Shown piece after piece: positions 18,001 to 38,100 of a DNA stretch of 38,574 bases. Source of the stretch: Candidatus Zixiibacteriota bacterium (GTDB lineage Bacteria > Zixibacteria > MSB-5A5 > CAIYYT01); NCBI GenBank assembly GCA_040235515.1, contig JBECKX010000210.1, forward strand, positions 1-38,574. The letters are read 5' to 3'. The notes beneath the pieces are model-generated. The model was not told where the DNA came from. It searched no databases and worked only from the letters and a program-made list of their open reading frames with translations. Position numbers and translations under genes: made by a program. The stretch's first letter is position 1, and each line of letters opens with the position of its first letter.

Positions 18001-18148
18001 TTCATTCTCCTTTCGACAGAGCAATTAGATTCCCGCACGTCGCCGGAGCAATGACAGTTCCAAGGTGGAGATTCTAAGACCTGCAGGGTATCCCACTCGC
18101 TATTCCGAATGATGGATACTACGGTATAAGATAGTTGTCAGCCCCTCC

Positions 18149-18901
18149 TCAGCGCAACCTGAACTTGATCTCATAAGCCACCCAGACCCGCACCGGTTGC
18201 TTGTTTTGCAGTCCGGGGCTCCACTTGCCGAGGCGTGCCGATTCGAGTGCGGCTTCCTCGAATCCTGCGTTGGCCCCCGATTCGTGCAGGATGATTGCAT
18301 CCATAACCGAACCGTCGAAGTCGATCAGGACCTTCACCCAGACAGTTCCTTCAATGCCTGCTCGTTTGGCGATACTCGGATATCTCGGCGAGACGAGATC
18401 GATCGCCTGAGGCCGAACCTCAATCGCAATGAAAGTGTCTGGCGGTGGCACAAAGCGGAGGGCAACACCGGCTTGATCGCTCCCCCAAAGGCTACCGCCG
18501 TCGTTGCCTCCACTCCCTATCTGCCGCGAAATCTCCTCTTGAGAAGCCATTACCGGATCGAGCGGGATCGGCACGGTGTCGCTGACCACGTCAAATTCAC
18601 AGACATCGATGATTACCTGGTCGGGAAGCGTCGGGGGTAGTGCCGGAACGACCTCAGACGGAGTCTCGACAGTGGGGGGAGGGAGGCTCAGATCAATCGT
18701 AAAGGTATCGGTCAGGGCCACAGTGCGGGGTTCCGGTCCTGCCGGTGGCGCAGCCGAGGCGAGCATAGTTGTCACCAACAACATCAGAGCCGTCGCCCCC
18801 AGGATGATCAGCACTGCAATGAACAGGTTGCGGTGGTAGCACCGTTTCAGTTCCAGCGCTCCCATGAGAGCGGTCACTCCTGCATCACGAATCGTACGCA
18901 T
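18149..18901 (-). CDS. Energy transducer TonB (paralog 2)
   Basis: GALELKRCY N-terminal motif, TM, Pro-rich linker, PRYPSIAKRAGIEGTVWVKV; AGGAGG RBS before ATG 18901. Confidence 0.88.
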   Translation of the reverse strand: MRTIRDAGVTALMGALELKRCYHRNLFIAVLIILGATALMLLVTTMLASAAPPAGPEPRTVALTDTFTIDLSLPPPTVETPSEVVPALPPTLPDQVIIDVCEFDVVSDTVPIPLDPVMASQEEISRQIGSGGNDGGSLWGSDQAGVALRFVPPPDTFIAIEVRPQAIDLVSPRYPSIAKRAGIEGTVWVKVLIDFDGSVMDAIILHESGANAGFEEAALESARLGKWSPGLQNKQPVRVWVAYEIKFRLR

Positions 18902-19169
18902 GGCGTTATCCCTCCTTGTGAATGGCGCCGGCGTGGACAGGGCGCGCATTCGACATTGTTTGAATCTGGCTGCTCTAAAAGCGGGTTGTGATGTCGCTGA
19001 GTCAGTTGCTCAGACTGTTTCTATCGGGAATACAGCCTGGGTGCCCGGTCTATTCCCGCTGACGAAGGAGATTCGTTCGTCAGAATTGCAGGAGCACCAT
19101 CGAGTCGATCTGGGCCACTAGACGTCGATGTTTGGTGTGAGGGAAAATCTAGTTGTTGGTGAGGGAACG

Positions 19170-19197
19170 GACCGGCGGTCGGTTACAACCGCCGATC
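19170..19197 (-). terminator. GC-rich stem-loop downstream of tonB1 (no clear U-tract)
   Basis: CGGCGGT...ACCGCCG inverted repeat ~27 nt after the stop. Confidence 0.35.
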
Positions 19198-19223
19198 TGC
19201 AAATTTCGAACAAGCCTGAGGGT

Positions 19224-19961
19224 TTAGCGGCCACCCTTAAGCTGGAACTTCACTTCATAAGCTACCCAGAGCGCCACCGGCTGCTTGTTCTGCATGGCGG
19301 GTCTCCAGATACTCTTCTTAGCGGCTTCAAGTGCGGCCTCTTCGAACCCGGCATTAGCACCTGATTCCTTGAGGATAATCGCGTCACGCACATTGCCGTC
19401 CTTGTCGACGAGCACCTTTACCCAGACAGAACCCTCGATACCGGCCTTGCGGGCGATTTCAGGGTACTTCGGGGATTCCTTCTGCAGTAGCTGTGGTTGT
19501 TCTTCAACCGCGATAAACTCATCCGGCGCCGGCAGGTAATCCTCGAGCGGGATATCCACCTGGATGTTGCCTGTGCCTTCACCCTCCGTGATCACCGGCG
19601 AGGTGATTTCGGCAAGTTCATCCTGCGAGACCACCACGAAGTCCTCGACGACTTCTTCATCCGGTACAGCTTCCGGCAGCGTGAACTTAGGCGCCGCAAC
19701 TTCCTGCGTTACCTTGATCTGCTGCGGTTTCCGCGCCAGCGACGGCGGCGGGCCGAGTTCGGAGATGTCGCGGATGATCAGCGTGGGTGCCTCGACCGCT
19801 TCGGAAGCGGTCAGCATCCGGATCAACGCGATTCCGCCAATAATCACCGCGAAGCCTAGCAGGACAAAGAGAGTAGCCTTGAACATGTTGCCCCAGTAGG
19901 TGCGCTTCATTTCGAAGGCGCCAATCGGGGACCATCTGACAGCGCGAGTTGCAGTAGTCAT
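19224..19961 (-). CDS. tonB: Energy transducer TonB (paralog 1)
   Basis: GAFEMKRTY, TM, acidic/Pro linker, PKYPEIARKAGIEGSVWVKV; directly follows exbD. Confidence 0.92.
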   Translation of the reverse strand: MTTATRAVRWSPIGAFEMKRTYWGNMFKATLFVLLGFAVIIGGIALIRMLTASEAVEAPTLIIRDISELGPPPSLARKPQQIKVTQEVAAPKFTLPEAVPDEEVVEDFVVVSQDELAEITSPVITEGEGTGNIQVDIPLEDYLPAPDEFIAVEEQPQLLQKESPKYPEIARKAGIEGSVWVKVLVDKDGNVRDAIILKESGANAGFEEAALEAAKKSIWRPAMQNKQPVALWVAYEVKFQLKGGR

Positions 19962-19963
19962 GG

Positions 19964-20590
19964 CTATTCCCCTCCTCCTACGGACTCTCCGTGCGCCAGC
20001 GCCATCCTGCGATCATGTTTGCGATCCCAGTGATCGATCGAATAGCGGAAGCTGAAGCTGTCGAAGTCGGGGTTTGCCTCAAGGTAGGTCTTCATGAAAT
20101 CCTCGTTATTGCGCAACAGGGCTTCAGAGACCTCGACTTCATCGAGCAAATCGATCATTCTGGAGTATGGAGCTTCGGGGTGAATAATCAGCAATGTATT
20201 CAGTTTGGGACGATCCCAGTTATAGCGGATGAACAGCGTCCTCAGCGAATCGGCGCTGACCTCGATCGGTACCTTGATATCTTCGCCGGTCTCCAGAGAC
20301 TTGCCGATATCGTAGTAGATGTCGCCTTCCTCATCGACGTAGACATTCAAAAGATTCGATGTCTTGACCTTCTGGCGGTCAGCGGTCTCATCCTCAGATT
20401 TCGGAGGAAGGTTGATTTCCATTGCCTGTGGCATGGCGAACACTGTCGTGACCATGTAGAAAATCAGCAACAGGAAAGCGATATCGACCATGGGAGTCAT
20501 GTCGATACGAATGGCAAGTCTGCGCTTGGGGCGCCTTAGACCTTTCTTTTTCCCACCACTAGGTTCTTTTTGGGGGGCATCAACAGCCAT
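19964..20590 (-). CDS. exbD: Biopolymer transporter ExbD/TolR (long form)
   Basis: IDMTPMVDIAFLLLIFYMVTT with conserved Asp; APYSRMIDLLD. Confidence 0.9.
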   Translation of the reverse strand: MAVDAPQKEPSGGKKKGLRRPKRRLAIRIDMTPMVDIAFLLLIFYMVTTVFAMPQAMEINLPPKSEDETADRQKVKTSNLLNVYVDEEGDIYYDIGKSLETGEDIKVPIEVSADSLRTLFIRYNWDRPKLNTLLIIHPEAPYSRMIDLLDEVEVSEALLRNNEDFMKTYLEANPDFDSFSFRYSIDHWDRKHDRRMALAHGESVGGGE

Positions 20591-20605
20591 TCAGTCTCAC
20601 CTCCT

Positions 20606-21079
20606 CTATATTGCCTCAGATTCAAGTTCGGTCACGACCTGGAACCGTGGCAGGTTTGACTCCACCATCGTATCCATGATCTTCTGCATAGTACCGAACT
20701 TGGCATCTTTGTCAGCTTTGATGATAACCAGCGCGCTCAGGTTGCGAGCACGGATCTGGTTGACGATGCTACCCACCTGGAATGGAGTGGTTTCGATGTA
20801 GACACGGTCCAGCTTGTTGACCGTCTGTCCATTGATTTCTTCCTCGACTCTTTCAACGTAGTCGACGAAGACCGAATCCTGGGAGGTAACGGTAATCATG
20901 ATCTTATCTTTTGATGGCAATTCGATCTGCGAATGCGACACCGGAAGGGTAACTTCCTTCTGCTCCGGTGGTTTGAACTGCGTCGTTGCCATATAGAAAA
21001 TCAATAGCAGAAACGCGATATCCACCATAGGTGTCATGTCGATTCGGATCGACAGTCGCCGTTTCTTCTTAATTGCCAT
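20606..21079 (-). CDS. exbD: Biopolymer transporter ExbD/TolR
   Basis: IDMTPMVDIAFLLLIFYMATTQF; IKADKDAKFG. Confidence 0.92.
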   Translation of the reverse strand: MAIKKKRRLSIRIDMTPMVDIAFLLLIFYMATTQFKPPEQKEVTLPVSHSQIELPSKDKIMITVTSQDSVFVDYVERVEEEINGQTVNKLDRVYIETTPFQVGSIVNQIRARNLSALVIIKADKDAKFGTMQKIMDTMVESNLPRFQVVTELESEAI

Positions 21080-21082
21080 CTC

Positions 21083-21844
21083 TTATGCCGCCTTATCAGC
21101 CTGAGCCTTGAACAGCTGCAGCACTTCATAGGTTGCTTCGTCCGTCGTGTAGTTGAATGAGTCAACCTTGTTGACGAAGAAGTTATAGAAGAAAATACCG
21201 AGGATACCGGAGACGAGACCACCGGCGGTATTCACCAGCGCCTCGGCGATACCCTTCGCCAGCGAGTTCGCGTCGATCACGCCACCCTGCGCCGAACCGG
21301 TAGCCGCGAAGGCACGAATCATACCAATCGTTGTACCGAGAAGACCGACCATGGTTGCAATCGATGCGATCGTTGACATGGCGATCAGGTTGCGCTCAAG
21401 CAGCGGTCCTTCGAGTGCGTTGGCTTCCTCGATCGCGGCCTGAACCTGGGAAATCTTCTTTTCGGTATCCATGCTTGAATCGTTCTTCACGTTCATGAAA
21501 CGCTCGATGCCGGCGCGAAGCACATTAGCGGTAGTACCGCGCTGCTTCTCGCAGGCAGCGATGGCGTCCTCGTATTTGCCGTCGCGCAGCATCTTGATCA
21601 GGTTCTTGAAGAATACCTGAATCGAGGATTTGCCCTTGGCGACGCGCAACGAGAGGAAGCGCTCGACCACGAATGCCAGCAGCATAAACAGGATAGCGAT
21701 AAGCACGATAACGAGCGGACCACCCTCATGTACGGAATGAGGAATTGTGCCGGGCTCCTGAGAGCCCAGAATCGGTCCCCAGATTACGTAACCGAAGACT
21801 ATTGCAACGATCGTTATGATTGTTACGAAGATGGTTTGTTTCAC
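21083..21844 (-). CDS. exbB: MotA/TolQ/ExbB proton channel protein
   Basis: ATMVGLLGTTIGMIRAF, GIAEALVNTAGGL; GTG start with GGAGG RBS. Confidence 0.93.
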   Translation of the reverse strand: MKQTIFVTIITIVAIVFGYVIWGPILGSQEPGTIPHSVHEGGPLVIVLIAILFMLLAFVVERFLSLRVAKGKSSIQVFFKNLIKMLRDGKYEDAIAACEKQRGTTANVLRAGIERFMNVKNDSSMDTEKKISQVQAAIEEANALEGPLLERNLIAMSTIASIATMVGLLGTTIGMIRAFAATGSAQGGVIDANSLAKGIAEALVNTAGGLVSGILGIFFYNFFVNKVDSFNYTTDEATYEVLQLFKAQADKAA

Positions 21845-21953
21845 CGGAAAAATCCTCCGAGTTTCTTCATTAAAACGTCAGCTAATTTCTAATCATCCAA
21901 TCGAGGGGTCAACATCTGGTAGACTGTGCTGACCGCCTGCGCGTTTAATCTTG

Positions 21954-22703
21954 CTAAAGCTCTCGAGACTTGTTGAAGTTGAGCATCATGCCGAAGAAGG
22001 CGATCCAGAAGCCATAGCTCGAGAACTGGATCAACGTTATTACCGTGTACCTGCTTCCCAGATCATAGACACCCAGATGTTCACCGAACGGGATCCTCTG
22101 GGTTACTATGCCCAGCACTATTATTGCGAGAAAGATGAGCAGGGGAATGAGGTTGAGCCTGAGGATTGACTTCACCCGGCCAACGTAGGCCGCCTCTGAC
22201 TTCGCTTTAAGAAATGGTGCCGCGAGCCCGAGGATTCCGAGGATTATACAGAGCGCAGCCATGGCGGCGAGGAGATAGACCGTCGTCGGGATGACCCAGC
22301 CATCCATCTTCTCGACATAGAACCAGAAACCGTCGCGATTGAAGAATCCGAGCAGTCCTGAGAAGGTCTCGGGACCATAAATAGTTTTGACGGAGAACCA
22401 GGTCAGGAATGGCGCGATGATCATAGCCAGGCTGGCGATGACAATGAAGATGCGATCAGTTGCGCCAATCGCCGTTGAATAAACTACCGAGTTGCGGTAG
22501 ATTGAGCCTACCTGACCCTTGACGCGCTCAACGTAGCTTTGACGTTCATTATCACTCTTCCAGAAATTACCGACCTTGGAGCCGAAGGCTTCAAAGCCGA
22601 TATACTGGTAGCGCTCATCTCCCAGCGCGGCAGATTCGGCGCTTGCCGCGCCGGCCGCTGCTGAGGCGTTCCCGGATTTGTTATCAGTTTTTTCTTCAGC
22701 CAT
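21954..22703 (-). CDS. Hypothetical membrane protein (~4 TM)
   Basis: Clean ORF with RBS between TPR and exbB genes; soluble N-terminus then hydrophobic segments. Confidence 0.7.
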   Translation of the reverse strand: MAEEKTDNKSGNASAAAGAASAESAALGDERYQYIGFEAFGSKVGNFWKSDNERQSYVERVKGQVGSIYRNSVVYSTAIGATDRIFIVIASLAMIIAPFLTWFSVKTIYGPETFSGLLGFFNRDGFWFYVEKMDGWVIPTTVYLLAAMAALCIILGILGLAAPFLKAKSEAAYVGRVKSILRLNLIPLLIFLAIIVLGIVTQRIPFGEHLGVYDLGSRYTVITLIQFSSYGFWIAFFGMMLNFNKSREL

Positions 22704-22740
22704 TAAACAAAGTCCTTAGCGTAAGTCAGGCGGGAGCCCT

Positions 22741-24522
22741 CTATTCAAGCGACTCCTTCAGACTTTTGAGTGTCTCATTATTGGGATCGCACTTGAGGCC
22801 ACGATTCGCCCACTTGAGTGCATCGTTGTCATGTTCAACGGTCTCATAGAAACTATGAGCCTGAGCAAGCCATGTAATCACGTCGATTTCTGTGCAAATG
22901 TCAACACCATTTGCCTCCATCTTATTGATGCTCTTGGTGAGATTCGCGACGGCTGCGTCTTTCTCCACCGGCTTGGCCGAGACGTGCGCGAAACCGATCC
23001 ACTTGTAAGGCTCGTATGCGTTCGGATCAGCTTTGGCCCACTTGCCATACCACTCAAGACCCTTCGCACGGTTCTTCAGTGTGTGCATGTAGGTATTGGC
23101 AATAGTCTTGTAAGCGAGGATGTAGTCCGGCTTCAACTCCGTAACCTTGATCATCTGCTGCATCGCTTCCTCTTCGCGATTAAGCTTGAGGAGTGCAAAG
23201 GCGAGATTGAGGTAGGTGTTGTAGACATCCGGCTCGGCCGCGATCTTCTTCTCGAACCATGGCACCGCGTTCTCGTAATCACCGATATAGTAGTAGCTCA
23301 GGCCCAGCTGGACATACATCTGGGGATCCTCGTCCTTCAGCGAAATGGCCTTGAGATAGTTGGGGATGGCGCGCTCAAGCAGTGTTGAGTCGGCGGTTCC
23401 GCCGTTCTGTTTCCCATCCATATAAAGCTGGAAGAAGGTGACGGCGCGTTCGCGGAAGAAATCGTAGTACTCCGGCGTCCACTCATAATTGGGGTCGCCG
23501 CCGGTGATCTTGTTCTCGTAATCCTGATAAGCCTGCACGGCTTCATCGAATCGCTGCAGCCGGAAGAGCGCCTTCGCCTTCTGGTCATAGGCCTGCGACT
23601 TATCGGTACCTGAGGCGATCGCCCGGTCAAGGTACTTCACGGCTGATTCGTATGCGTTGACGTAGTAGTACGCCTGCCCCAGACGATAGTCGACTTCATC
23701 AGTCTCCTTACCGTTGGTGCTGAGGTACTTCTCGTATGCCCAGATCGCGCTACGGAAGAAGTCTTGAGCTTTGGCGGCATCGCTGTTCAGCGTAGAGAGG
23801 CCGGTGATCATATAGATGTCGGCCATCATGTTGTAAGCGGTAGTGTAGTTGGAGTCGAGGCCGATCGCTTTCGACACATCCTTGAGAGCGTCCGTGAACT
23901 GGCGCTGTTTGTATTGTGCGCGCCCGAGTTTGTACCAGGTTTCGGCATCCGTGGAATCCTTCTTCAGGATATCCTGATACTTGCCGATCGCCACGGCGTA
24001 CACTTCATTCTCGTAGTTCATATCAGCATGATCGCGCTGGAATTCGATGTTATCCGGCTCGGCGATCAGGGCTTTGCGGAAATTGATGTCGGCGTTTGAG
24101 TAGTCACCCTGGGCGAGGTAGAGATGCCCGAGGTGGTTTTCGAAACGCGCCTTATAATCCTTGCTCTTCTCGGCGCCTTTTTCAAGGATCTTCTTGGCCT
24201 CGTCATACTTGCCTTCGTAGACGTAGGTTAACCCGAGGTAGGCTTTGGCCGGATCATAGTTGCCTTTCTTGTCAAGGCAATCATCGAAGGCCTTTTCGGC
24301 CAGGGAATACTCCTCTTTCTCAAGGTAGCAGCGACCGAGCCAGTAATACAGCTCATGGTAACGCGAATCCTTCTCGATTGCTTTCTGCAATGAAGCGATG
24401 CATTGGTCGTACTTACGTGCCTTGAATAGCTGTTCCGCATCAGAGGCGGCATCGGCCAAGACCATGCCTGCGCTGAACAACCAGACCAGTAGAAGTATAC
24501 TAAAAAACTTGATAAATTTCAT
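22741..24522 (-). CDS. Exported tetratricopeptide-repeat protein
   Basis: Signal peptide MKFIKFF...VLA|D; many TPR units (YYWLGRCY, AYLGLTY, WYKLGRAQY, YLNLAFAL); GGAG RBS before ATG 24522. Confidence 0.88.
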   Translation of the reverse strand: MKFIKFFSILLLVWLFSAGMVLADAASDAEQLFKARKYDQCIASLQKAIEKDSRYHELYYWLGRCYLEKEEYSLAEKAFDDCLDKKGNYDPAKAYLGLTYVYEGKYDEAKKILEKGAEKSKDYKARFENHLGHLYLAQGDYSNADINFRKALIAEPDNIEFQRDHADMNYENEVYAVAIGKYQDILKKDSTDAETWYKLGRAQYKQRQFTDALKDVSKAIGLDSNYTTAYNMMADIYMITGLSTLNSDAAKAQDFFRSAIWAYEKYLSTNGKETDEVDYRLGQAYYYVNAYESAVKYLDRAIASGTDKSQAYDQKAKALFRLQRFDEAVQAYQDYENKITGGDPNYEWTPEYYDFFRERAVTFFQLYMDGKQNGGTADSTLLERAIPNYLKAISLKDEDPQMYVQLGLSYYYIGDYENAVPWFEKKIAAEPDVYNTYLNLAFALLKLNREEEAMQQMIKVTELKPDYILAYKTIANTYMHTLKNRAKGLEWYGKWAKADPNAYEPYKWIGFAHVSAKPVEKDAAVANLTKSINKMEANGVDICTEIDVITWLAQAHSFYETVEHDNDALKWANRGLKCDPNNETLKSLKESLE

Positions 24523-24592
24523 TTTTGGGACTCCGTATCGTGCCAAGCGACGCGACTAAAGGCTGGCAATATAGCCCGCCCTCTAGAGCGCG

Positions 24593-28864: not shown

Positions 28865-29635
28865 CTACGACAGCTTTCGATGTGGCGGGCCGACGTATTG
28901 CGCATTGGTATCTCCCAATTTTCGCATCGGCCGCTGCGTAGTCTTCTCCTCGTACGCGTGGGCAGCCAATCCGGCGACACGTGAGAAAATGAAAAACGCT
29001 TTGCCAAGCTGCCAATCGAATCCAAGGTCGGAGATGACTGCAGCGATAGCGCCATCGACATTCAGCGGTAGTTTCTTGCCGGTACTTTGTTCCAGTGCGC
29101 TTTCGATCGCGAGAGCCAGTTCCAGGTGGCGTCCATTGAAATTGTTGCGTCTGGCGATTTCGAACAGCTTGGCCGTCCTCGGATCAGCGGTATGAAGACG
29201 GTGACCGAACCCGGGCATCCGCTTTTTCGATTGCGCCAACTCCTCCACCAGCCTGCGGGCAAGGTCACTCGGGGTGCCTTCCCTGGCGGCCCATTGCTGC
29301 ATAATGCGGGCCGATTGTTCGATCGCGCCGCCGTGGACATCACCAATCGCCAGCACTCCCGCCGCTACCGCGGTATTGAAAGAGTTGCCGGCGGACATGA
29401 CCGTGCGGGTCGCGAGAACCGAAGGAGGGCTGACGCCATGATCGACAGAGGAAACCAGTATCGCGCGCATCATCTCCGACTCGGCATCCGAGGGGAGTTC
29501 GCCCTTGAGCACCAGGAAGATGGCATCACTGAAGCTGAGCGATTCCATCAGTTCGGCGACATCGTAACCTCGCACGCGGATCAGGTTGGCGCCGATCTCG
29601 GTGATGGAGGTTTTCCACGGCTCTGAACTGTTCAT
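28865..29635 (-). CDS. Citryl-CoA lyase (citrate-synthase-like family)
   Basis: WKTSIT, VRGY, DHG, HGGAIE, PGFGHR..DPR, LNVDGAIAA; ~256 aa; ATGA overlap with upstream gene. Confidence 0.85.
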   Translation of the reverse strand: MNSSEPWKTSITEIGANLIRVRGYDVAELMESLSFSDAIFLVLKGELPSDAESEMMRAILVSSVDHGVSPPSVLATRTVMSAGNSFNTAVAAGVLAIGDVHGGAIEQSARIMQQWAAREGTPSDLARRLVEELAQSKKRMPGFGHRLHTADPRTAKLFEIARRNNFNGRHLELALAIESALEQSTGKKLPLNVDGAIAAVISDLGFDWQLGKAFFIFSRVAGLAAHAYEEKTTQRPMRKLGDTNAQYVGPPHRKLS

Positions 29636-30480
29636 CGTCCATCCCCGGCTTTCTCGCGATTGGAGATCGCTTCGTCGGTTTGAGTCGGGAGGAATGCCAA
29701 CCAACGTTCCTCGATCTCATCAGGTGTTACCCCCAGCAGTACTTCGACCGCAGTGGCGAAATCATCCTGGCTGTCATAGACCTGCCGGAACTCCGATTTT
29801 TGCTGGAATGTGATCGGACCCCACTGCGTCAGCATGAATGCGCAAAGTGACGCCGCCTGAGTCTGACGTTTATTCTCGTCAAGCCTCATATACTTGTCGT
29901 TGTCGATCATCTCCTCGATGTCGAAATAATCGTCATCCTGCACGCGCTGGTAAAGCATGTCATGGAAGTTGCGACCACTGTAGTCGAACGCGAGTTGTAA
30001 GCCTTCCTCCATGAATTTGTGTCGCGGGTGACCGATATCATCCATGACCATCTGGGTCAACTGCTTGCCATAAATGGGGCCGTAGCCATAGAAAATCGAA
30101 TCCCCCTGCACCGTCGTGAAATTCAAACCCGTAGAACTGAGCAGGTCTCTCAGGTCGGCGAAGCAGAAGAAGTAGATCGTGTCGACCTCCTGGTCCTGCA
30201 GGCCGAAGATGATATTGGCATACATCTCCTCCGTTTTCTTCAGCAACGCCGGAGCCTTGGCGGCAAGCGTGTCGACCGGCTGGTAGTAGAATTGGACATA
30301 CTGACCGGGAAGCTTCTGCCACTCGAAGTCAACATTGAGGGTTACCGGGCCGGAGTGCCGTTGCTGTGACTGCGACATCGAACCGGATGAATCGGAATCG
30401 TTGTCATCGGAACCACAGCTCCAGAGTAGCAGCATCGGGACGACCAGGATAAATGCAAACAGGAATCTATATCGTGTCAT
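29632..30480 (-). CDS. Hypothetical lipoprotein, peptidase MA-like fold lacking HExxH
   Basis: Lipobox LWS|C; Ser-rich linker; KQLTQ...FMEEGL...QAASLCAFML..WG; GGAGG RBS before ATG 30480. Confidence 0.65.
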   Translation of the reverse strand: MTRYRFLFAFILVVPMLLLWSCGSDDNDSDSSGSMSQSQQRHSGPVTLNVDFEWQKLPGQYVQFYYQPVDTLAAKAPALLKKTEEMYANIIFGLQDQEVDTIYFFCFADLRDLLSSTGLNFTTVQGDSIFYGYGPIYGKQLTQMVMDDIGHPRHKFMEEGLQLAFDYSGRNFHDMLYQRVQDDDYFDIEEMIDNDKYMRLDENKRQTQAASLCAFMLTQWGPITFQQKSEFRQVYDSQDDFATAVEVLLGVTPDEIEERWLAFLPTQTDEAISNREKAGDGR

Positions 30481-30591
30481 TACTCCTCCAGGATTCGAGA
30501 ACTCATCGGCAAGGATGATAGTCGATTGCCGGGGGGATGTCAACAATACCGAACCTCGGCGGTATCAGTAGGTGGCGGGGAATGGTGACAT

Positions 30592-30623
30592 AAAAAAACG
30601 GGAAGCCGCCGAGCGGCGGCTTC
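30592..30623 (-). terminator. Rho-independent terminator ending the oxidoreductase operon
   Basis: GAAGCCGCC-loop-GGCGGCTTC followed by CCGTTTTTTT on the minus strand. Confidence 0.85.
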
Positions 30624-30668: not shown

Positions 30669-31094
30669 TCAGCCTGCGTGCGACAGTGCCGACTTGTAGA
30701 CGAGCGCCTGCGTCGGACAGAATTTCGCACAGGCCGGATCTCCCCCGCAAAGATCGCATTTCACGACGCGATTCTGATGATCATCGAACAACGAACAACC
30801 GAACGGGCACGCGGCGACGCATGCCATACATTTGACACAAATCTCGTGATCGATCTCGTAAGCACCGGTTTCCGGATTCAACTTGATCGCATCCACCAGG
30901 CACGACTTCACGCAGGCGGGATCATCGCACTGCAGACAGACCACCGGTACCCAGAGGTCTTTCATTCCACCATCGAGCGGATAGATTCGGCTGCGACCCT
31001 GCTTGCCGTCGACGGCGTGCGTAAATGAACACGCCAGCTCACAGGTACGACAACCGATGCAGAGGTTCGGGACTACTTCGAAGCGCATTTTCAT
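30669..31094 (-). CDS. 4x[4Fe-4S] electron-transfer subunit (DmsB/CooF/HydN/AOR-small-subunit-like)
   Basis: CIGCRTCELAC, CLQCDDPACVKSC, CVKCMACVAACP, KCDLC..DPACAKFCP. Confidence 0.9.
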   Translation of the reverse strand: MKMRFEVVPNLCIGCRTCELACSFTHAVDGKQGRSRIYPLDGGMKDLWVPVVCLQCDDPACVKSCLVDAIKLNPETGAYEIDHEICVKCMACVAACPFGCSLFDDHQNRVVKCDLCGGDPACAKFCPTQALVYKSALSHAG

Positions 31095-31885
31095 GATTCG
31101 ACCTCCTTCGGGCCGGCATCCACACGCGACCAGGCCGCTATCTTGCCAAAACTTCGGGCCGTGCGCTTCCGGTGACTTTCGTCTCCTTCGCCGAAGTACT
31201 CTGCCGGAATCTCGCGATGTTGACTGAGATACTCGGCAAACTCGCGTGTGATCGTCGGCTTGCCGGTCTGCGGGTCACGCAGCATCTCGAAAGTCTTGCC
31301 CCAGATTTCCCTGGTCACACCGGTATCGGTGTACTTGATGTAGTTGGTCGGGCAGTTGAGCGCGCACGCGAGACAGCCTGTACAATCAGGCGGCGGTTCG
31401 TTCAAAGGTGGCGCAACCTCGCGACCATGCCCGCGGTTGACCAGAGAGATCGCCGAGAAACCCATCGCATCGCAGATACGAGTACAGATGGAGCAGAGGA
31501 TACAATCATCTGGCTCGGCAACTTCCTGATATTTGCTGCGCACGATCCCGTATTCGGCGGCAAGGTCCTTGATTTCTTTTGTATGCGGATTTCGCGCGAG
31601 TAGCAGATGCAGCACGGTTTTGCGTTCTTCGATCACCGCCTCGGAATCGGTTTGAACTTCGAGATCCGCGCTCACCGGGTAGAGACAGGAAACCACCAGG
31701 TCTTTCCAACCCTTCCACTGTGGCTTGGTGATCTCCACCATGCAGAGACGGCAACCGCCGTACGGCTCGACTGCCTCATGGTGACAGAGCGCCGGTACGC
31801 CGAATCCGGCACGTTTCAAGACGGCCAGGAGGTATTCCCCCTCCTCCGCCTGAACCAGTCTGCCGTTGATAGTAATATTGATCAT
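31091..31885 (-). CDS. NuoG/HydA N-terminal-like Fe-S subunit without catalytic domain
   Basis: LCHH...GGCRLCMVE...SC [2Fe-2S]; CILCSICTRIC and CTGCLACALNCP; start 31885-31912 uncertain. Confidence 0.85.
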   Translation of the reverse strand: MINITINGRLVQAEEGEYLLAVLKRAGFGVPALCHHEAVEPYGGCRLCMVEITKPQWKGWKDLVVSCLYPVSADLEVQTDSEAVIEERKTVLHLLLARNPHTKEIKDLAAEYGIVRSKYQEVAEPDDCILCSICTRICDAMGFSAISLVNRGHGREVAPPLNEPPPDCTGCLACALNCPTNYIKYTDTGVTREIWGKTFEMLRDPQTGKPTITREFAEYLSQHREIPAEYFGEGDESHRKRTARSFGKIAAWSRVDAGPKEVES

Positions 31886-31908
31886 CGTCATCTCTCCGTC
31901 ATCATTTC

Positions 31909-33837
31909 TCAAGCCACATCGATCGCGTCATACCTGCACACCGCCACACACGCGCCACACTGCGTACATTTATCCTGGTGTATGAAGTGCGGCTTTTTCT
32001 TCTCACCCGTGATGGCATTGTAGGCACACGCCGCTATGCAGGCGACACAGCCGGTGCATTTTTCTTCATTGATAGTGTAAGTGATCAACTCGCGGCAGAC
32101 GCCTGCGGGACACCGCTTCTCGCGGATATGTGCTTCCCATTCATCGCGGAAGTAGCGGAGTGTTGAGAGGATCGGATTCGGCCCCGACTTACCCAGTCCG
32201 CAGAGGGAGGCTTTCACCACGACATCAGAGAGCTGCTCGATTTTCTCGAGATCACCCTCTTCGGCACGTCCCTCACAGACAGCGACCGTCATCTGGTGCA
32301 GTTGATAGAGCCCTTCGCGACACGGCACGCATTTGCCACAAGATTCAGATACCAGGAACTGCAGGAAATAGCGGGCGACATCGACCATGCAGGTACGATC
32401 ATCCATCACGATCATGCCGCCGGAGCCCATCATCGACCCCGCCTTAGTAAGCGAATCGAAGTCCACCGGCAGGTCGAGCATCGATTCCGGCAGACAACCA
32501 CCCGAGGGTCCTCCGGTCTGGACTGCCTTGAAGGGTCGATCTCCGAGAATGCCGCGACCGATGTCATAGATGATCTCGCGCAGAGTCGTCCCCATCGCCA
32601 CTTCGATAAGGCCCGTATTGCGCACCTTACCGACCAGGGAAAATGCCTTGGTACCGCTGTTGTTTTCGCAACCGATTGATGTGAACCAGGCGGCGCCCCG
32701 GTCCAGGATGACCGGGACATTGGCGTAGGTTTCTACGTTGTTGAGAACCGTCGGCTTGTCCCACAGTCCTTTGATCACCGAACGAATATATTTCTCGCGC
32801 GGCTCGCCCACCTGCCCGGCTACAGATTTCATCAAGGCCGAGGATTCACCACACACGAACGCGCCTGCGCCACGCGCAATTTTGATATCGAAACAGAAGT
32901 CGGTTCCGAGTATTTTCTCACCCAACAAGCCATACTCGCGACAATCATCGATTGCCTTCTGCAGGTGCAACACCGCGAGGGGGTATTCTTCACGTACGTA
33001 GATGAATCCGCGCCGGGCGCCGACTGCGTATGCAGCAATCATCATCCCCTCCAAGACAGTATGCGGATCGCCCTCCATGATGCTTCGATCCATGAATGCA
33101 CCGGGGTCCCCCTCATCTCCGTTGCAGATCACGAAGCGCTCATCCGCGTCGACACTCGCGCATTGACGCCACTTTCGCCCCGCTGGAAAACCGCCGCCAC
33201 CTCTACCGCGCAGGTTGGCTTTGTCGACTTCATCGATCACTTGCTCCGGCGTCATCTTGAGGATGGCTTTGGCGAGTCCCTGGTATCCCCCGACTGCGAT
33301 GTAGTCACCGATCGAGTGCGCCGCTATCTTTCCCAGGTTTCGCAGCGCGATTCGCTCCTGATGTTTGAAGAAGGAGACATTTCCGTAGCATTCGATCTTC
33401 TTTTCATCCTTCGGATCGACATAGAGATGCTTCTCGATGACATCGTCACTCTCAATCGACTTCGCGATGATGTCGGGAATATCTTTCGGTTTGACCTTGG
33501 TGTAAAAAGTGCCCTTCGGCTCGATCACAACCAGCGGTCCCTGCTCGCAAAAGCCGTGGCAGCCGGTCTCTTTGATCGCCTTGACTTCGAAGTCTTTGAT
33601 CTTGCGTTGCTTGAGCACATCGTGGAACGCCTCCACCAGCTTGGCGGCGCCGTTGGCGAGACAGCCGGTACCGCAGCAGATCATCACCTGCTTCGGGAAC
33701 CTGGCATTCTCTGCGCGGCACTGAGTGCGCATCAGGTCGAGCTGTGCCCTGGAGGTAATCTTGCCCGTGAATTCGGTTTTCGGCTTCGCAGCGGCCCCGG
33801 TCTTCTTCTTCTGAGTCTTGGTAGTCCTGGCCATCAT
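31909..33837 (-). CDS. NuoF/HydB-like NAD(H)/FMN-binding subunit, long bifurcating-type architecture
   Basis: N-terminal CCGTGC/GCHGFCEQGP, LRGRGGGGFPAGRKW, GDEGDPGAFMDR, GGPSGGC, ESCGKCVPCREG, CPAGVC, two C-terminal 4Fe-4S motifs; ATGA overlap with nuoE-like gene. Confidence 0.93.
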   Translation of the reverse strand: MMARTTKTQKKKTGAAAKPKTEFTGKITSRAQLDLMRTQCRAENARFPKQVMICCGTGCLANGAAKLVEAFHDVLKQRKIKDFEVKAIKETGCHGFCEQGPLVVIEPKGTFYTKVKPKDIPDIIAKSIESDDVIEKHLYVDPKDEKKIECYGNVSFFKHQERIALRNLGKIAAHSIGDYIAVGGYQGLAKAILKMTPEQVIDEVDKANLRGRGGGGFPAGRKWRQCASVDADERFVICNGDEGDPGAFMDRSIMEGDPHTVLEGMMIAAYAVGARRGFIYVREEYPLAVLHLQKAIDDCREYGLLGEKILGTDFCFDIKIARGAGAFVCGESSALMKSVAGQVGEPREKYIRSVIKGLWDKPTVLNNVETYANVPVILDRGAAWFTSIGCENNSGTKAFSLVGKVRNTGLIEVAMGTTLREIIYDIGRGILGDRPFKAVQTGGPSGGCLPESMLDLPVDFDSLTKAGSMMGSGGMIVMDDRTCMVDVARYFLQFLVSESCGKCVPCREGLYQLHQMTVAVCEGRAEEGDLEKIEQLSDVVVKASLCGLGKSGPNPILSTLRYFRDEWEAHIREKRCPAGVCRELITYTINEEKCTGCVACIAACAYNAITGEKKKPHFIHQDKCTQCGACVAVCRYDAIDVA

Positions 33838-34316
33838 TTGTCCCTCACCAACCGCTTCGCCCCACTTACCTTCACGGAGCCGTGATACTCCTCGTTGACA
33901 ATCACAACCGGCGCCATCGCACACGCCCCGACGCAGGCGACGACTTCGAGCGAGAATTTGCCATCTTCGGTGGTTTCGCCCGCTTTGATCCCCAAATGGT
34001 TCGATATCTGATCCAGGATCAGTCCGGCTCCACGAATGTGACACGCCGTACCCATGCAGACGCGCACGACTTTCTCACCCTTCGGGTTGAGGCTGAAAGC
34101 GTTGTAGAAAGTCGCTACCGAGAATACTTTGCTGAGTGGGAGCTGCAGATACTCTGCGGCTTGCTTGAGCGCTTCACAAGGCAGGTAGCGGTACTCCTTC
34201 TGGATATCCTGCAGGATCATGATCAGCGAGGACGCATCCTGTGAATGTCTTTCGAAGATCCCCGTCAATTTCGAAAAGTCATGACTGAGCGCGGGGGATT
34301 GAGTCGTCTGCGTCAT
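33834..34316 (-). CDS. NuoE/HydC-like [2Fe-2S] subunit
   Basis: VATFY, VCMGTACHIRGA, VACVGACAMAPV. Confidence 0.93.
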   Translation of the reverse strand: MTQTTQSPALSHDFSKLTGIFERHSQDASSLIMILQDIQKEYRYLPCEALKQAAEYLQLPLSKVFSVATFYNAFSLNPKGEKVVRVCMGTACHIRGAGLILDQISNHLGIKAGETTEDGKFSLEVVACVGACAMAPVVIVNEEYHGSVKVSGAKRLVRDK

Positions 34317-34879
34317 ACCCTGGCCCCCTGCTGTTTCATCCGTTGTTCGCCCAGCTGATAACTCTCTTCAATAACCTTCAGGTTGATCTCCAGCAGGTCC
34401 TCCTTATGGCCCATTTTCTGGCGCACGATATCTTTCAGACTCTCAAATTTCACTACCTTAGTAGCACCGACAAACACACCCAGCATTACCATGTTGACGA
34501 TTTTGGGGCTCCCCGCCTTGATCGCGATGTCGTTGCCTTCGACCAGTATCTCCGTGATGTCATCCCGCTTCGAGACCAGGTCGATCAGCGATTTGTTTAC
34601 GACGATGATCCCACCCGGTCGGACGCGCGGTGCGAATTTCTCCATCGATGGGCGGTTGAAGACAACCAAACCGCGCGGGGTATTGATGATCGGTGAGCCG
34701 ATGCGTCCCTCGGAGATGACGACCGTGCAATAGGCGGTGCCGCCACGCATCTCAGGTCCGTATGAGGGAATCCATGCAACCTGTTTGCCCTCATGGATGC
34801 CGGTGTACGCGAGCAACTGTCCGGCGGTCATGATGCCCTGCCCGCCGAACCCGGCGAAGGTGACTTCGAACTGCGTCAT
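34313..34879 (-). CDS. 2-oxoacid:ferredoxin oxidoreductase gamma subunit
   Basis: AGFGGQG, PSYGPEMRGGTA, NMVMLG. Confidence 0.93.
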   Translation of the reverse strand: MTQFEVTFAGFGGQGIMTAGQLLAYTGIHEGKQVAWIPSYGPEMRGGTAYCTVVISEGRIGSPIINTPRGLVVFNRPSMEKFAPRVRPGGIIVVNKSLIDLVSKRDDITEILVEGNDIAIKAGSPKIVNMVMLGVFVGATKVVKFESLKDIVRQKMGHKEDLLEINLKVIEESYQLGEQRMKQQGARV

Positions 34880-35664
34880 ACTTCCATCACCTCCGGTGGT
34901 TCTTTGAAAACCCCCAGCGGGTAGTAGGGTGACATCTCACGCTCCAGCCATTTGGTTGACTCGCATGGAGTGAGCCCCCAGTTGGTGGGGCAGGTTGAGA
35001 GCACTTCGACCAGCGAGAAACATCGTCCTTCTACCTGATTTTTGAAGGCACGCCTGATGGCGCGTTTGGCGCGCACGATATTCTGTGGCGTGTGAACGGC
35101 GACGCGTTCGATATAACCCGGTGTCTGCAGGGTAGCGAGCATCTCGCTCATGCGCATTGGCCACCCCGCCGTGTTGACGTCACGACCCTTCGGTGAAGTC
35201 GCGGTCACCTGGCCCGGCATCGTGGTCGGGGCCATCTGTCCACCGGTCATGCCATAGATAGCGTTGTTCACGAAGATCGTCGTAATTTTCTCACCTCGAT
35301 TGGCTGCGTGGATGATCTCGTTCGTACCGATCGAAGCCAGGTCGCCGTCACCCTGGTAAGTAAACAGAATCAACTCGGGTGAGACACGTTTGAGCCCTGT
35401 CGCCAGCGCAGGGGCGCGACCATGGGGGGCTTCCAGAAAGTCGGTGCGGAAGTAGTTGTAGATCAGCACCGAGCAACCAACCGGCGCGACACCAACGGTG
35501 CGTTCGCGGATGCCCAGCTCGTCGATCGTTTCAGCGATCATGCGATGGATAACACCATGCGTACAGCCGGGGCAGTAGTGCGTGACGACATCAGTAAATG
35601 CCTTCGGTCGCGCGAAGGTGATGTTCGGATCAGCTTTCGGATCAGCTTTCAAGTCAATTACCAT
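34876..35664 (-). CDS. 2-oxoacid:ferredoxin oxidoreductase beta (TPP-binding) subunit
   Basis: HYCPGCTHG, PVGCS, HGRA, YQGDGDL, NNAIYGMTGGQMAPT, CPTNW. Confidence 0.94.
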   Translation of the reverse strand: MVIDLKADPKADPNITFARPKAFTDVVTHYCPGCTHGVIHRMIAETIDELGIRERTVGVAPVGCSVLIYNYFRTDFLEAPHGRAPALATGLKRVSPELILFTYQGDGDLASIGTNEIIHAANRGEKITTIFVNNAIYGMTGGQMAPTTMPGQVTATSPKGRDVNTAGWPMRMSEMLATLQTPGYIERVAVHTPQNIVRAKRAIRRAFKNQVEGRCFSLVEVLSTCPTNWGLTPCESTKWLEREMSPYYPLGVFKEPPEVMEV

Positions 35665-35675
35665 CTGTCATCACC

Positions 35676-36827
35676 TCACTTTGCCTTTTTCTTGCCGGCA
35701 GGCTTCTTTGCTTTAGCGGCAGGTTTCTGCGCAGCCGTTTTTGCGGTTTTCTTTGCAGCCGGCTTCGCTTTGAGGAGTTTGAGGATATGCTCCTTCACCT
35801 CTTCCGGTGATGGAACGATACCGCCGGTACGTCCATAGAATTCCACCGGCTTTTTACCAAGTACCGATTTCTGCACATCCTCGAGCATCTGCCCCATACT
35901 CATCTCAACGGTGAGTACCACTTCGATGTTTTTCCGGGCAGCTTCTGCATGGATTTCCTTCTCCGGGAAGGGGAAGAGGCTGATTGGTCTGAGCAGCCCG
36001 ATGCTGATCCCTTCCTCCTCGAGTTCGTCGATCACTGTCTGACAGATGCGCGCCATCGTGCCGTAGGAAATGACCAGCATGCGGTTCTTGCTGCTGACTT
36101 TGTAGTTTTCGTAGCGCACCTCCTCACGCCGCATCTGCTCATATTTCTCCGCCAGAACGAAGCTGTTCTTCTCAAGGGCGTAAGGATCTAGGAAGAGTGA
36201 CTTGGCTATCAACGGCTCGCGATCCTTGCAGCCGACAATCGCCCAATCCTTCGGCGGAAGCGGATCTTCCTTGTACTCATCCGGAAACTCAACCGGCTCC
36301 ATCATCTGCCCGATCATGCCATCACCGATCACCATGACGGGATTGCGATACTTGTCGGCCAGGTGGAACGCCAGCATAGTCAGATCGACGGCTTCCTGCA
36401 CCGTTGACGGCGCCAGCACGAGCAATCGATAGTCGCCGTGACCGCCCCCCTTGGTGGCCTGGAAATAGTCGGACTGCGCCGGGAGGATACCACCGAGCCC
36501 CGGTCCGCCGCGCATGATGTTGATCAACACCACGGGTAATTGCGCACCCGCCATGTAGGAGATCGACTCCTGCATCAGGCTGATCCCGGGCGAGGAGGAG
36601 GAAGTGAACACGCGCTTGCCCGAGGCTGCGCCGCCGAAGAGCATATTGCCAACTGCTACTTCGCTCTCGGCCTGCACGAAGACGCCATCGACTTCCGGTA
36701 AACGTTTTGCAAGGTATTCGCCCACCTCGCTTTGCGGAGTGATAGGATAGGCGAAGTAGTACTTGCCACCGGCCCGGACAGCCGCTTCACCGATGGCTTC
36801 GTTGCCCTTCATCAATATTCTGGTCAT
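35676..36827 (-). CDS. 2-oxoacid:ferredoxin oxidoreductase alpha subunit (VorB/KorA-type)
   Basis: MKGNEA, YPITPQSE, QAESE, TSSSSPGISL, RGGPGLG, GGGHGDY; Lys/Ala-rich C-terminal tail. Confidence 0.94.
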   Translation of the reverse strand: MTRILMKGNEAIGEAAVRAGGKYYFAYPITPQSEVGEYLAKRLPEVDGVFVQAESEVAVGNMLFGGAASGKRVFTSSSSPGISLMQESISYMAGAQLPVVLINIMRGGPGLGGILPAQSDYFQATKGGGHGDYRLLVLAPSTVQEAVDLTMLAFHLADKYRNPVMVIGDGMIGQMMEPVEFPDEYKEDPLPPKDWAIVGCKDREPLIAKSLFLDPYALEKNSFVLAEKYEQMRREEVRYENYKVSSKNRMLVISYGTMARICQTVIDELEEEGISIGLLRPISLFPFPEKEIHAEAARKNIEVVLTVEMSMGQMLEDVQKSVLGKKPVEFYGRTGGIVPSPEEVKEHILKLLKAKPAAKKTAKTAAQKPAAKAKKPAGKKKAK

Positions 36828-36844
36828 AGCTTCCGCCTTACATC

Positions 36845-37078
36845 CTAATAGTCATAGAGCACAAAGCGTGTGCCGTGCATGTGAACTGAGATCGCAGCAT
36901 CGGGACAGGTGATCGCACAGATCTGACAGCCGATGCATCGCGACGGGTCATGGCAGACTGCGTAGAAATAGCCTCGTTTGGTGATGTCCTTCGACATCGA
37001 GAGGATTTCCTGCGGACAGGCTTTCACGCAAAGCTCACAGCCTTTGCAGTAGTTCTTATCTATCGTAACACCCGGCAT
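36845..37078 (-). CDS. 2x[4Fe-4S] ferredoxin, oxidoreductase delta subunit
   Basis: CKGCELCVKACP and CIGCQICAITCPD. Confidence 0.92.
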   Translation of the reverse strand: MPGVTIDKNYCKGCELCVKACPQEILSMSKDITKRGYFYAVCHDPSRCIGCQICAITCPDAAISVHMHGTRFVLYDY

Positions 37079-37116
37079 AGCATCTTCCTTCGCCGTTCAC
37101 GTGACCAGCTCTTGGT

Positions 37117-37860
37117 TCAAAGGTCACGCAATGTAAGTTTAGATTTCTGGCCTTTCTCCCACGGCTTAAGCATCCTGCGCGCCAGGCTGAAGAGCGGCGC
37201 ACCCGCCGATTCGGGATCCATCTTCTCCACCACTTCCGCCATCGCGCTGGCAAACACCAGTGGCAACCCGGTCGCATCGCTCACTTCCCGCGCCAGCTTG
37301 ATCCCCGCGAGCACCGTTTCCGGAGTTGTTTCGCCGATCAGATGCGTGTTGGAGACGATGCCGGTAAACTTCAGCCGGGAAGAGTACTCAATGGCGTGGA
37401 TCATCTTTTGCGTACCCTCCACTGTGGAAGTGAAGGGTCGATTGGCGTTGAGGACCAGCAGGAACTGGTATTGGCGCTGTTCGAAGACATCCACCATCGA
37501 GCCGAGTACGCGAGCGCCAAGGTCATCGCCGCCGACGTCAAGCACCGTCGTGCCCTCTTCCTCCTCAAGCGTCGACCTGATTTGAGGGACAATGATGGGC
37601 AAGTCGGCGTGGCAGTGCTCTCCGAGCGGCATGATAACATTTATGCCATGTTCTTCCATCTCTCCGCGGGCTTCGCGAGATCGGAAGTAGGGATTTACGA
37701 TGTCCAAATCGATGATACTCAGGGGGTGAGACGCAGGGTCTTCGACCAGTTTAAGTGCGTAATTGACAGCAACTTCTGTCTTACCTGAGCCATACGCGCC
37801 GGCGAAGATTATCACCTTCTCCGCGAACGGCTTGATGTTGCTGTCGATCATAGTTATCAC
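37117..37860 (-). CDS. P-loop NTPase (MinD/CobQ-like) associated with 2-oxoacid oxidoreductase operons
   Basis: GAYGSGKTE, DLDIVNPYFRSRE, ADLP, DVGGD..GA, N..RPFT; start GTG 37860 or ATG 37851. Confidence 0.82.
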   Translation of the reverse strand: MITMIDSNIKPFAEKVIIFAGAYGSGKTEVAVNYALKLVEDPASHPLSIIDLDIVNPYFRSREARGEMEEHGINVIMPLGEHCHADLPIIVPQIRSTLEEEEGTTVLDVGGDDLGARVLGSMVDVFEQRQYQFLLVLNANRPFTSTVEGTQKMIHAIEYSSRLKFTGIVSNTHLIGETTPETVLAGIKLAREVSDATGLPLVFASAMAEVVEKMDPESAGAPLFSLARRMLKPWEKGQKSKLTLRDL

Positions 37861-37867
37861 TCACTTC

Positions 37868-37885
37868 ACGTGACTTTTTTCACAA
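37868..37885. promoter_or_regulatory. Rex/CRP-like operator (TTGTGAAAAAAGTCACGT on the minus strand)
   Basis: Near match to TTGTGAA-N4-TTCACAA, located between promoter and start codon. Confidence 0.55.
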
Positions 37886-37911: not shown

Positions 37912-37940
37912 AGTGTATATTATCGGACAACTTTAGTCAA
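37912..37940 (-). promoter_or_regulatory. Sigma70 promoter TTGACT-17-TACACT for the oxidoreductase operon
   Basis: agtcaa at 37935-37940, agtgta at 37912-37917. Confidence 0.6.
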
Positions 37941-38080: not shown

Positions 38081-38100
38081 TTTGTGATTTGCTTCACAAA
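38081..38100. promoter_or_regulatory. Rex/CRP-type palindrome TTTGTGA-TTTGCT-TCACAAA
   Basis: Perfect 7-6-7 inverted repeat in the divergent intergenic region. Confidence 0.7.

Follow-up and report, generated by a model that had tools for sequence, protein, structure and literature searches.

A VorB-type 2-oxoacid oxidoreductase operon with a WorABCS-like module in Candidatus Zixiibacteriota: a candidate bifurcating branched-chain 2-oxoacid dehydrogenase

The window analyzed here is the stretch of 38,574 nucleotides at positions 1 to 38,574 of contig JBECKX010000210.1, from a Candidatus Zixiibacteriota genome (assembly GCA_040235515.1; 100% complete, 0.16% contamination). It contains a unit of nine open reading frames (ORFs), all on the minus strand from position 37860 down to 30669, which encode, in order, an ATPase, the delta, alpha, beta and gamma chains of a 2-oxoacid:ferredoxin oxidoreductase (OFOR), NuoE, NuoF, a short NuoG and a subunit S with four [4Fe-4S] clusters (Table 1). 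On balance, these genes are predicted to encode a single wired Vor-BfuABCS complex under the control of Rex, which would oxidize 2-oxoacids, probably branched-chain ones, and bifurcate the electrons between NAD+ and ferredoxin. A more specific version of this reading is put forward tentatively: a bifurcating branched-chain 2-oxoacid dehydrogenase in which the tungsten head of WorABCSL would have been swapped for a thiamine pyrophosphate (TPP) enzyme, with a nine-residue tail of delta acting as the plug into S.

Composition of the operon and its known relatives

By its sequence, the operon belongs to the Bfu family, Type 2, in which BfuA carries only clusters A1, A2 and A4 and is fed by extra subunits (family criteria from PMC9304861). 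BfuB and BfuC possess the flavin mononucleotide (FMN)/NAD site, clusters B1 to B5, including the B2 His/Cys site, and cluster C1. The BfuB ligands are C54/59/93/97, C483, C500/503/506/546, C521, H570, C576, C581 and the CxxCxxCxxxC motifs at 594 and 624. Residues of the bifurcating type in BfuB are A/E232, M234, F367 and GGPSG (PMC7311640). The window BfuB bears the motifs AFM (A247, M249), GAFVCGE and GGPSG at 442. Based on its motif, F327 of GAGAFVCGE is presumed to be the equivalent of F367, although the number does not fit the same offset. BfuA possesses exactly 12 cysteines in three sets, with none in the A3 region, and no catalytic domain. Searches of the nine proteins against Pfam and NCBIfam gave no domain of the H-cluster, molybdopterin, NiFe or membrane Nuo kind, as the original prediction had stated. 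The P-loop NTPase had no match in either database.

The closest solved relative is WorABCSL from Acetomicrobium mobile (PDB 9MQX; PMC12318220). The best PDB match of the short NuoG is WorA (9MQX_A, E 8e-52; next 1e-20), and its AlphaFold model (mean pLDDT 91.8) aligns with 9MQX_A over 244/247 residues (Z 25.6, root-mean-square deviation 3.2; next Z 18.1). For S, AorA (8C0Z) ranks first in the PDB and WorS (9MQX_E) second. In WorABCSL, the WorA helix recruits WorS, so that S4 lies 10.7 Å from A4 (PMC12318220). The two systems share BfuB, a short BfuA with an adaptor helix, S and a low-potential third substrate. In contrast, the window operon lacks the tungstopterin subunit WorL and none was found in the genome (no AFOR_N match), S is without the long nanowire helix, and both CxxC pairs of the BfuA zinc finger are replaced in the window, while these cysteines are kept in 21 of 39 relatives. 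Because S stops 13 residues past its last CPT, compared with 32 in the WorS of locus L049, a nanowire is unlikely and one S per ABC is expected. Judged from sequence, the NuoEFG and S half is a WorABCS chassis without WorL. The original prediction of a 'headless' HydABC/NuoEFG module was right about the headless Bfu core but recognized neither the WorABCS chassis nor the VorB-type OFOR. A FastTree phylogeny of 104 BfuB rows included 45 from operons of this type, and 44 of these group in a single clade (support 99), whose neighbors are the Wor-type locus L049 and S-less Por-type loci. The distances for alpha and BfuB correlate with a rho of 0.82 over 38 loci, a value that shared descent alone would also give.

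The catalytic half is not of the pyruvate type. Its alpha subunit scores 117 bits against PorA_Arch (cut-off 550) and lies above the curated VorB cut-off (Table 1), with the TPP and cluster motifs intact. The gamma subunit is presumably CoA-binding, as is usual for its family. A separate pyruvate:ferredoxin oxidoreductase (PFOR) is encoded on contig C72, and a KOR-type operon with SucCD and an IOR with butyrate kinase occur elsewhere in the genome. Since these operons already cover other 2-oxoacids, branched-chain 2-oxoacids are the probable substrate of Vor. The operon itself has no acyl kinase or ligase gene that would hint at the substrate. It resembles the VorDABG/PRK07119 2-ketoisovalerate ferredoxin oxidoreductases in its alpha subunit, gene order and upstream ATPase. 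In contrast, gamma is the last gene of stand-alone Vor operons, whose delta subunit is without the aromatic tail. The ATPase was rejected as part of the link between OFOR and Bfu because it heads stand-alone Vor operons too.

A complex of this general kind has been proposed before. Por-Bfu, with seven subunits including a pyruvate oxidoreductase, was predicted from 12 sequences as a Type 2 Bfu enzyme of Dehalococcoides and syntrophs (Schut 2022, PMC9304861), and according to the available part of a later paper its BfuA has no helix and it has no WorS homologue (Feng 2025). Like Por-Bfu, the window operon combines a four-subunit OFOR with BfuCBA, and its BfuA has only A1, A2 and A4. It differs in the VorB-type alpha, the order delta-alpha-beta-gamma, the BfuA helix, the presence of S and the delta tail. 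Three loci of the Por-Bfu build (L051, L052 and L054) group near the window BfuB clade, and these have a PorA-like alpha, gamma as the first gene, no S and a BfuA that ends at the zinc finger. Thus, the operon probably works like the predicted Por-Bfu, yet it is not Por-Bfu as published, nor Wor-Bfu, since WorL is missing.

The original prediction also stated that such complexes have at most been predicted from genomes, and the literature bears this out. In the available text of PMC9304861, Por-Bfu is a prediction only, and a full-text search for 'Por-Bfu' returned only Schut 2022 and Feng 2025, as prediction. No characterized 2-oxoacid oxidoreductase coupled to flavin-based bifurcation was found in the available text of the literature searched, including a PFOR review of November 2026, in whose accessible text 'Bfu' does not occur. 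Likewise, the available part of the Zixibacteria genome paper makes no mention of NuoE-type genes. The general idea was published in 2022; new here would be the Vor-type OFOR, the WorABCS-type chassis with helix and S, and the delta tail. Supplementary Table 1 of PMC9304861 may list Vor+S-type members in clades 35 or 44, which could lower the novelty.

Linkage of the two halves and the delta tail

The original prediction proposed that synteny be checked across genomes, and the nine-gene order was found to hold in several phyla. Among 49 loci with orthologous short NuoG and S, all nine genes are present in order in 35 (33 distinct). The remaining 14 comprise 13 loci that end early at the end of a contig or stretch and one in which beta and gamma share a reading frame. 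The linked operon was seen in records labelled Zixibacteria/Ignavibacteria, Acidobacteriota and Myxococcota. Metagenome contigs supplied additional linked loci, as did phylum samples taken around one Acidobacteriota and one Myxococcota genome. This conservation of gene order is far above chance. Moreover, the translational overlap between gamma and nuoE is widely kept among linked loci.

If the position behind vor were incidental, BfuABCS could serve an unlinked head, such as WorL, CooS, formate dehydrogenase (FDH) or hydrogenase. The module is structurally WorABCS, and AFOR_N is present in two of the five Acidobacteriota/Myxococcota carriers examined. However, an unlinked AOR or FeFe-hydrogenase partner was looked for in the complete source genome, and AFOR_N, prismane/CO dehydrogenase (CODH) and the FeFe large subunit had no match there. 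Its NiFe hydrogenase (contig C67) and Nfn/Fdh-like protein (C151) each have a NuoEFG set of their own next to them, and complex I is encoded separately. Among 61 genomes of the class, 28 carry an orthologous short BfuA. A close alpha occurs in 27 genomes and a distant VorB in 24 others, with one Vor locus in each, and AFOR_N was found in only one of the 28 carriers of short BfuA. Given also the conserved gamma/nuoE overlap, an unlinked head is very improbable. Instead, the OFOR is most likely the attached catalytic unit, as originally proposed, in view of the synteny, the failure to find a WorL, CODH or FeFe partner in the genome, the delta tail and two natural deletions.

The delta tail is the feature most closely associated with linkage. 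In all 36 linked copies first aligned, delta is 77 residues long and ends in the pattern G-x-x-[FY]-x-x-[FYI]-x-Y, whereas the delta of stand-alone Vor operons extends only a few residues beyond its last cluster or carries a non-aromatic stub. Across 112 distinct alpha loci, the tail is present in 45/45 linked and 0/38 unlinked loci, with 29 unscorable. Of 24 stand-alone Vor loci in the same class, 20 were retrieved, and none of these has the tail. The first scoring pattern missed two linked loci; the positional rule was written afterwards, and V was later allowed at +16. A second set of 74 loci (40 of 55 plus 34 of 35 hits, two of them duplicates of earlier loci) contained 26 tail-positive loci with E-F-G-S, 36 tail-negative loci without it, 10 unscorable loci and two tail-positive loci without NuoE. 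In an alpha tree of 165 rows, the tail is present in 71/71 linked and 0/94 unlinked rows, with L306 and L307 scored as linked though they are without the BfuBC core. Link-specific columns are Q23, G69, F72, Y75 and Y77 in delta and E268 in alpha, with none in beta, gamma or the ATPase. The tail may thus be a plug into S or the BfuA adaptor. A complex prediction for S and delta, made with 43-row alignments only, scored 0.01 against a mark of 0.32 and gave no answer either way. The suggestion that linked deltas are without a basic ferredoxin-docking face was rejected, as they are more basic instead (mean +1.5 vs. 0.0).

The linkage could also mean only co-transcription of two separate enzymes, a Vor that reduces soluble ferredoxin and a BfuABCS fed at S by ferredoxin or another carrier. 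Several times, stand-alone Vor operons emerged from within the linked clade, which indicates that Vor works without the module, and the genome encodes a free 2x[4Fe-4S] ferredoxin (C185:31473-31658). In keeping with repeated loss of the module, an approximately unbiased (AU) test on 62 rows rejected a single clade of linked rows (p=0.027). However, every module loss also lost the delta tail or fused it away. In addition, two core-less loci (L306:449-4953 and L307:4608-9312) retain ATPase-delta(tail)-alpha-beta-gamma, followed by a small fusion and then S, while NuoE and the NADH/FMN part of NuoF are lost. The fusion joins the B3/B4 ferredoxin-like domain of BfuB to the C-terminal part of BfuA, of which L306 has the zinc finger and helix only. 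In these loci, the tail, S and helix thus stay with Vor after loss of the bifurcating NADH core, and the product is likely a plain ferredoxin-reducing wire. The same genomes encode other BfuB copies, with 48-49% identity. Finally, a loop from ferredoxin to S and back to ferredoxin would serve little purpose. Two separate enzymes are, for these reasons, a rather unlikely arrangement.

Direction, electron acceptors and regulation

In the wired complex, alpha, beta and gamma would carry out the TPP-dependent decarboxylation of the 2-oxoacid. The electrons would then pass from the delta clusters through S1-S4 and A4-A2-A1 to B1 and FMN, where two would go to NAD+ and two via C1 and B3/B4 to ferredoxin. 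The net reaction would be 2 R-CO-COO- + 2 CoA + NAD+ + 2 Fd(ox) -> 2 acyl-CoA + 2 CO2 + NADH + 2 Fd(red), at about -42 kJ. Amino-acid oxidation would thereby continue when the ferredoxin pool is reduced, and half of the electrons would reach NADH, which is usable by complex I. No Rnf was found in the source genome. Absence of Rnf was rejected as a mark of the carriers because none of the 61 class genomes reaches the Rnf cut-off.

The potentials favor this oxidative direction. With NADH at -280 mV and ferredoxin at -500 mV (PMC9304861), the mean of the two donors is -390 mV. Per four electrons, the oxidation gives about -42 kJ when NADH and reduced ferredoxin are both formed, compared with about 0 for ferredoxin alone and -85 kJ for NAD+ alone. 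The original prediction suggested that the complex might drive reductive carboxylation, but this suggestion is not supported: carboxylation at about -500 mV is uphill by about 42-50 kJ per four electrons. The reverse reaction costs what the forward reaction yields and is worse than ferredoxin alone, so confurcation could not power carboxylation.

A reductive role, in which acyl-CoA is carboxylated at the expense of NADH and reduced ferredoxin, either to supply 2-oxoacids for biosynthesis or to dispose of NADH, nevertheless has some support. The carboxylating direction was proposed for Por-Bfu (Schut 2022, PMC9304861) and reverse operation for a methanogen VOR (PMC13285125), Rex derepresses at high NADH (PMC2883068), and a citryl-CoA lyase homologue adjoins the operon in 21 loci, a number that includes two duplicates. 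However, besides the unfavorable energetics, catabolic genes, citrate synthase among them, likewise have Rex-like sites in front of them, and the Si-citrate synthase, complex I and a Qrc/alternative-complex-III-like cluster fit a respiring heterotroph. A reductive role is therefore considered improbable. Reverse tricarboxylic acid cycle activity through the citryl-CoA lyase homologue was likewise unsupported, as a Si-citrate synthase is encoded and, in the Acidobacteriota loci, the homologue does not adjoin the operon.

The acceptor side raises a different alternative. The same wired complex might be a non-bifurcating, NAD-linked 2-oxoacid dehydrogenase like PadEFGHI, a phenylglyoxylate:NAD+ oxidoreductase (NF045762/64/66), with BfuBC acting as an NAD+ reductase only. 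Both systems couple an OFOR to NAD(H) and have an S-like 4x[4Fe-4S] domain; in PadEFGHI it is joined to beta and alpha is PorA-like, while the window operon has S as a separate subunit and a BfuABC core at the acceptor end. PadEFGHI possesses a single FAD subunit and is not known to use ferredoxin. Its role in the pathway is described in PMC5109826. Within a single NCBIfam profile, PadI, S matches positions 10-138 and beta positions 225-364. PadI is the beta subunit of NADH-dependent phenylglyoxylate dehydrogenase, and this fusion may serve as a precedent for an S-like domain joined to an OFOR. Moreover, NAD+ reduction alone is strongly downhill. In contrast, the window BfuB retains AFM, GAFVCGE, GGPSG and B2-B5, which are not found in non-bifurcating enzymes, and B3/B4 ligands are present in 43/43 linked BfuBs. 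WorABCSL requires both acceptors even though either alone would be downhill (PMC9304861). An NAD-only enzyme is accordingly regarded as unlikely.

Several observations weigh against the wired, bifurcating enzyme, in addition to the AFOR_N genes of two carriers. In the Acidobacteriota/Myxococcota branch, BfuB has AFK in 9/43 and, in the second set, 17/26 cases; a lysine at the M position of AFM is typical of non-bifurcating enzymes (PMC7311640), and a whole branch with this residue favors the NAD-only alternative. This AFK branch is possibly a non-bifurcating offshoot. As for the tail, its correlation with linkage rests on few events: each of the two traits changes six times, and the well-supported branches provide four independent pairs, all in agreement. 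As an event count this is not significant (sign test p=0.125). In addition, L306 and L307 indicate that what the tail follows is S and the adaptor, not bifurcation as such. The substrate of Vor is also uncertain, as some relatives of VOR prefer arylpyruvates (PMC13285125). Lastly, induction at high NADH would fit an NADH-consuming role at least as well.

Regulation by Rex is suggested by two operator-like sites upstream of the operon (Table 1). These sites are not significant within the window alone. Among 24 related ATPase-containing loci, 21 have at least one Rex-like site with no more than three mismatches. The genome encodes a rex gene (259 bits vs. a cut-off of 126), and its only perfect site lies 57 nt upstream of rex. 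Genome-wide, 37 Rex-like sites with at most two mismatches were found, 30 of them intergenic, compared with 6-8 in three shuffles. Such sites lie in front of energy genes, including those for the Hdr-hydrogenase, the Nfn-type Bfu and citrate synthase. Together, this points to a clear Rex regulon in this uncultured lineage, with predicted NADH-sensitive control. Because Rex repression is lifted by NADH (PMC2883068), the operon is likely to be expressed under anoxia. The genome additionally encodes one CRP/FNR-type protein.

If the bifurcating reading is right, uncultured amino-acid degraders without Rnf would balance their ferredoxin against NADH during decarboxylation itself, and annotations that name these genes hydrogenase or complex I subunits would be wrong. 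If the tail is indeed the plug, the pair formed by the BfuA helix and S would be a socket that can be reused with unrelated catalytic heads, and the delta tail would be a sequence marker for the wired form. The operon is a concrete, widespread test case, with a deletable predicted docking element and a predicted direction. Stand-alone Vor, the core-less L306 and L307 and the AFK branch are available as natural controls.

Gene calls, neighboring genes and related loci

The operon was originally described as one promoter-to-terminator unit, and the nine ORFs are in place, with a promoter-like site before them and a strong hairpin and T-run after them. The sigma70-like site is weak on its own, as nine such sites were seen compared with 4.7 +/- 2.3 in shuffles. 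Four-nucleotide ATGA overlaps occur at exactly the junctions named in the original prediction (beta/gamma, gamma/nuoE, nuoE/nuoF and nuoG/S), and the remaining intergenic gaps are 38, 17, 11 and 23 nt. The NuoF start was placed at ATG 33837, replacing GTG 34044 of the ORF list, and the short NuoG most likely starts at ATG 31885, which is preceded by GGAGAG. The C-terminal end of alpha (35676-35780) and the N-terminal start of NuoF (33770-33837) are Lys/Ala/Thr-rich and of low complexity, and these segments are not present in most relatives.

Table 1. Features of the nine-gene operon and its flanks, in window coordinates
Feature	Position	Strand	Basis or remark
Rex-like operator, distal	38082..38099		1 mismatch to TTGTGAA-N4-TTCACAA; at about -220 nt in 11/13 same-family ATPase-containing loci
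Sigma70-like promoter (TTGACT-17-TACACT)	37912..37940	-	Consensus match only, 9/12 positions
Rex-like operator, proximal	37868..37885		3 mismatches; between -10 box and start codon; position kept in 12/13 same-family loci
P-loop NTPase (GAYGSGKT, DLDIVN)	37117..37860	-	Motifs; usual Vor-operon companion
OFOR delta, 2x[4Fe-4S], 77 aa	36845..37078	-	Pfam/NCBIfam
Delta aromatic C-terminal tail (G69..F72..Y75.Y77)	36848..36874	-	Alignment; candidate docking element for S or BfuA adaptor
OFOR alpha, VorB family (PRK07119)	35676..36827	-	521 bits vs. cut-off 399; YPITP, R-G-P motifs
OFOR beta, TPP-binding (GDGD..N), with cluster cysteines	34876..35664	-	Domain and motif
OFOR gamma (GFGGQG)	34313..34879	-	TIGR02175 above cut-off; POR gamma
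BfuC/NuoE, [2Fe-2S] cluster C1	33834..34316	-	Ligands C87/92/128/132
BfuB/NuoF, FMN/NAD site, B1-B5 ligands	31909..33837	-	Best PDB match WorB 9MQX_B, 746 bits
Short BfuA/NuoG, WorA type, 264 aa, clusters A1, A2, A4	31091..31885	-	Cysteine pattern, AlphaFold model
BfuA C-terminal helix, residues 235-256	31118..31183	-	AlphaFold model
S subunit, 4x[4Fe-4S], WorS/AorA/CooF-like	30669..31094	-	Best NCBIfam match is PadI N-terminal domain
Intrinsic terminator-like hairpin (9 bp), then T-run	30602..30623	-	Sequence

The window also encodes the citryl-CoA lyase homologue (28865-29704; PRK06224, above cut-off) and a 304-aa lipoprotein-like ORF (29632-30546). Across the class, both genes occur near the operon, either downstream on the same strand or divergently upstream.

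Other Bfu-type sets were encountered in the source genome and among the loci compared. On C67 (L154:1589-11284, G000), an operon with the order HdrC-HdrB-HdrA(N-terminal part)-NuoE-NuoF-NuoG-NiFe small-NiFe large, with hypothetical genes and Rex-like sites, has a Bfu core flanked by heterodisulfide reductase genes on one side and hydrogenase genes on the other. An Nfn/Stn-type BfuCBA on C151 (L155:1031-7077, G000) is preceded by a Rex-like site, and its 1258-aa alpha subunit has GltD-like and Fdh-like domains. Another headless set occurs in this class and others (L057, L059, L061, L062 and L138-L150), with a long NuoE (about 280-320 aa), a NuoF that is often a GltD-like fusion (about 1060 aa) and a NuoG of 225 aa. 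In L057 and L059, this set is followed by a 527-aa ORF, which in L057 had no NCBIfam match at 1e-40. The loci of the Acidobacteriota/Myxococcota branch with AFK, once AFE, are L039-L046, L055, L105, L260-L271 and L300-L309, and their variable B2 ligand is often not Cys or Thr. Related to the linked clade are Vor operons with the order delta-beta, gamma, alpha (L193, L195, L216, L274-L277, L310, L313 and L316-L318). Delta either is fused to beta, as seen in L193, L195 and L216, or lies directly before it, and no Bfu genes follow where the sequence allows this to be seen.

Elsewhere in the window (17503-24546), ExbB/ExbD/ExbD and a TPR protein are followed by three consecutive TonB C-terminal genes, an ordinary outer-membrane energizing cluster.

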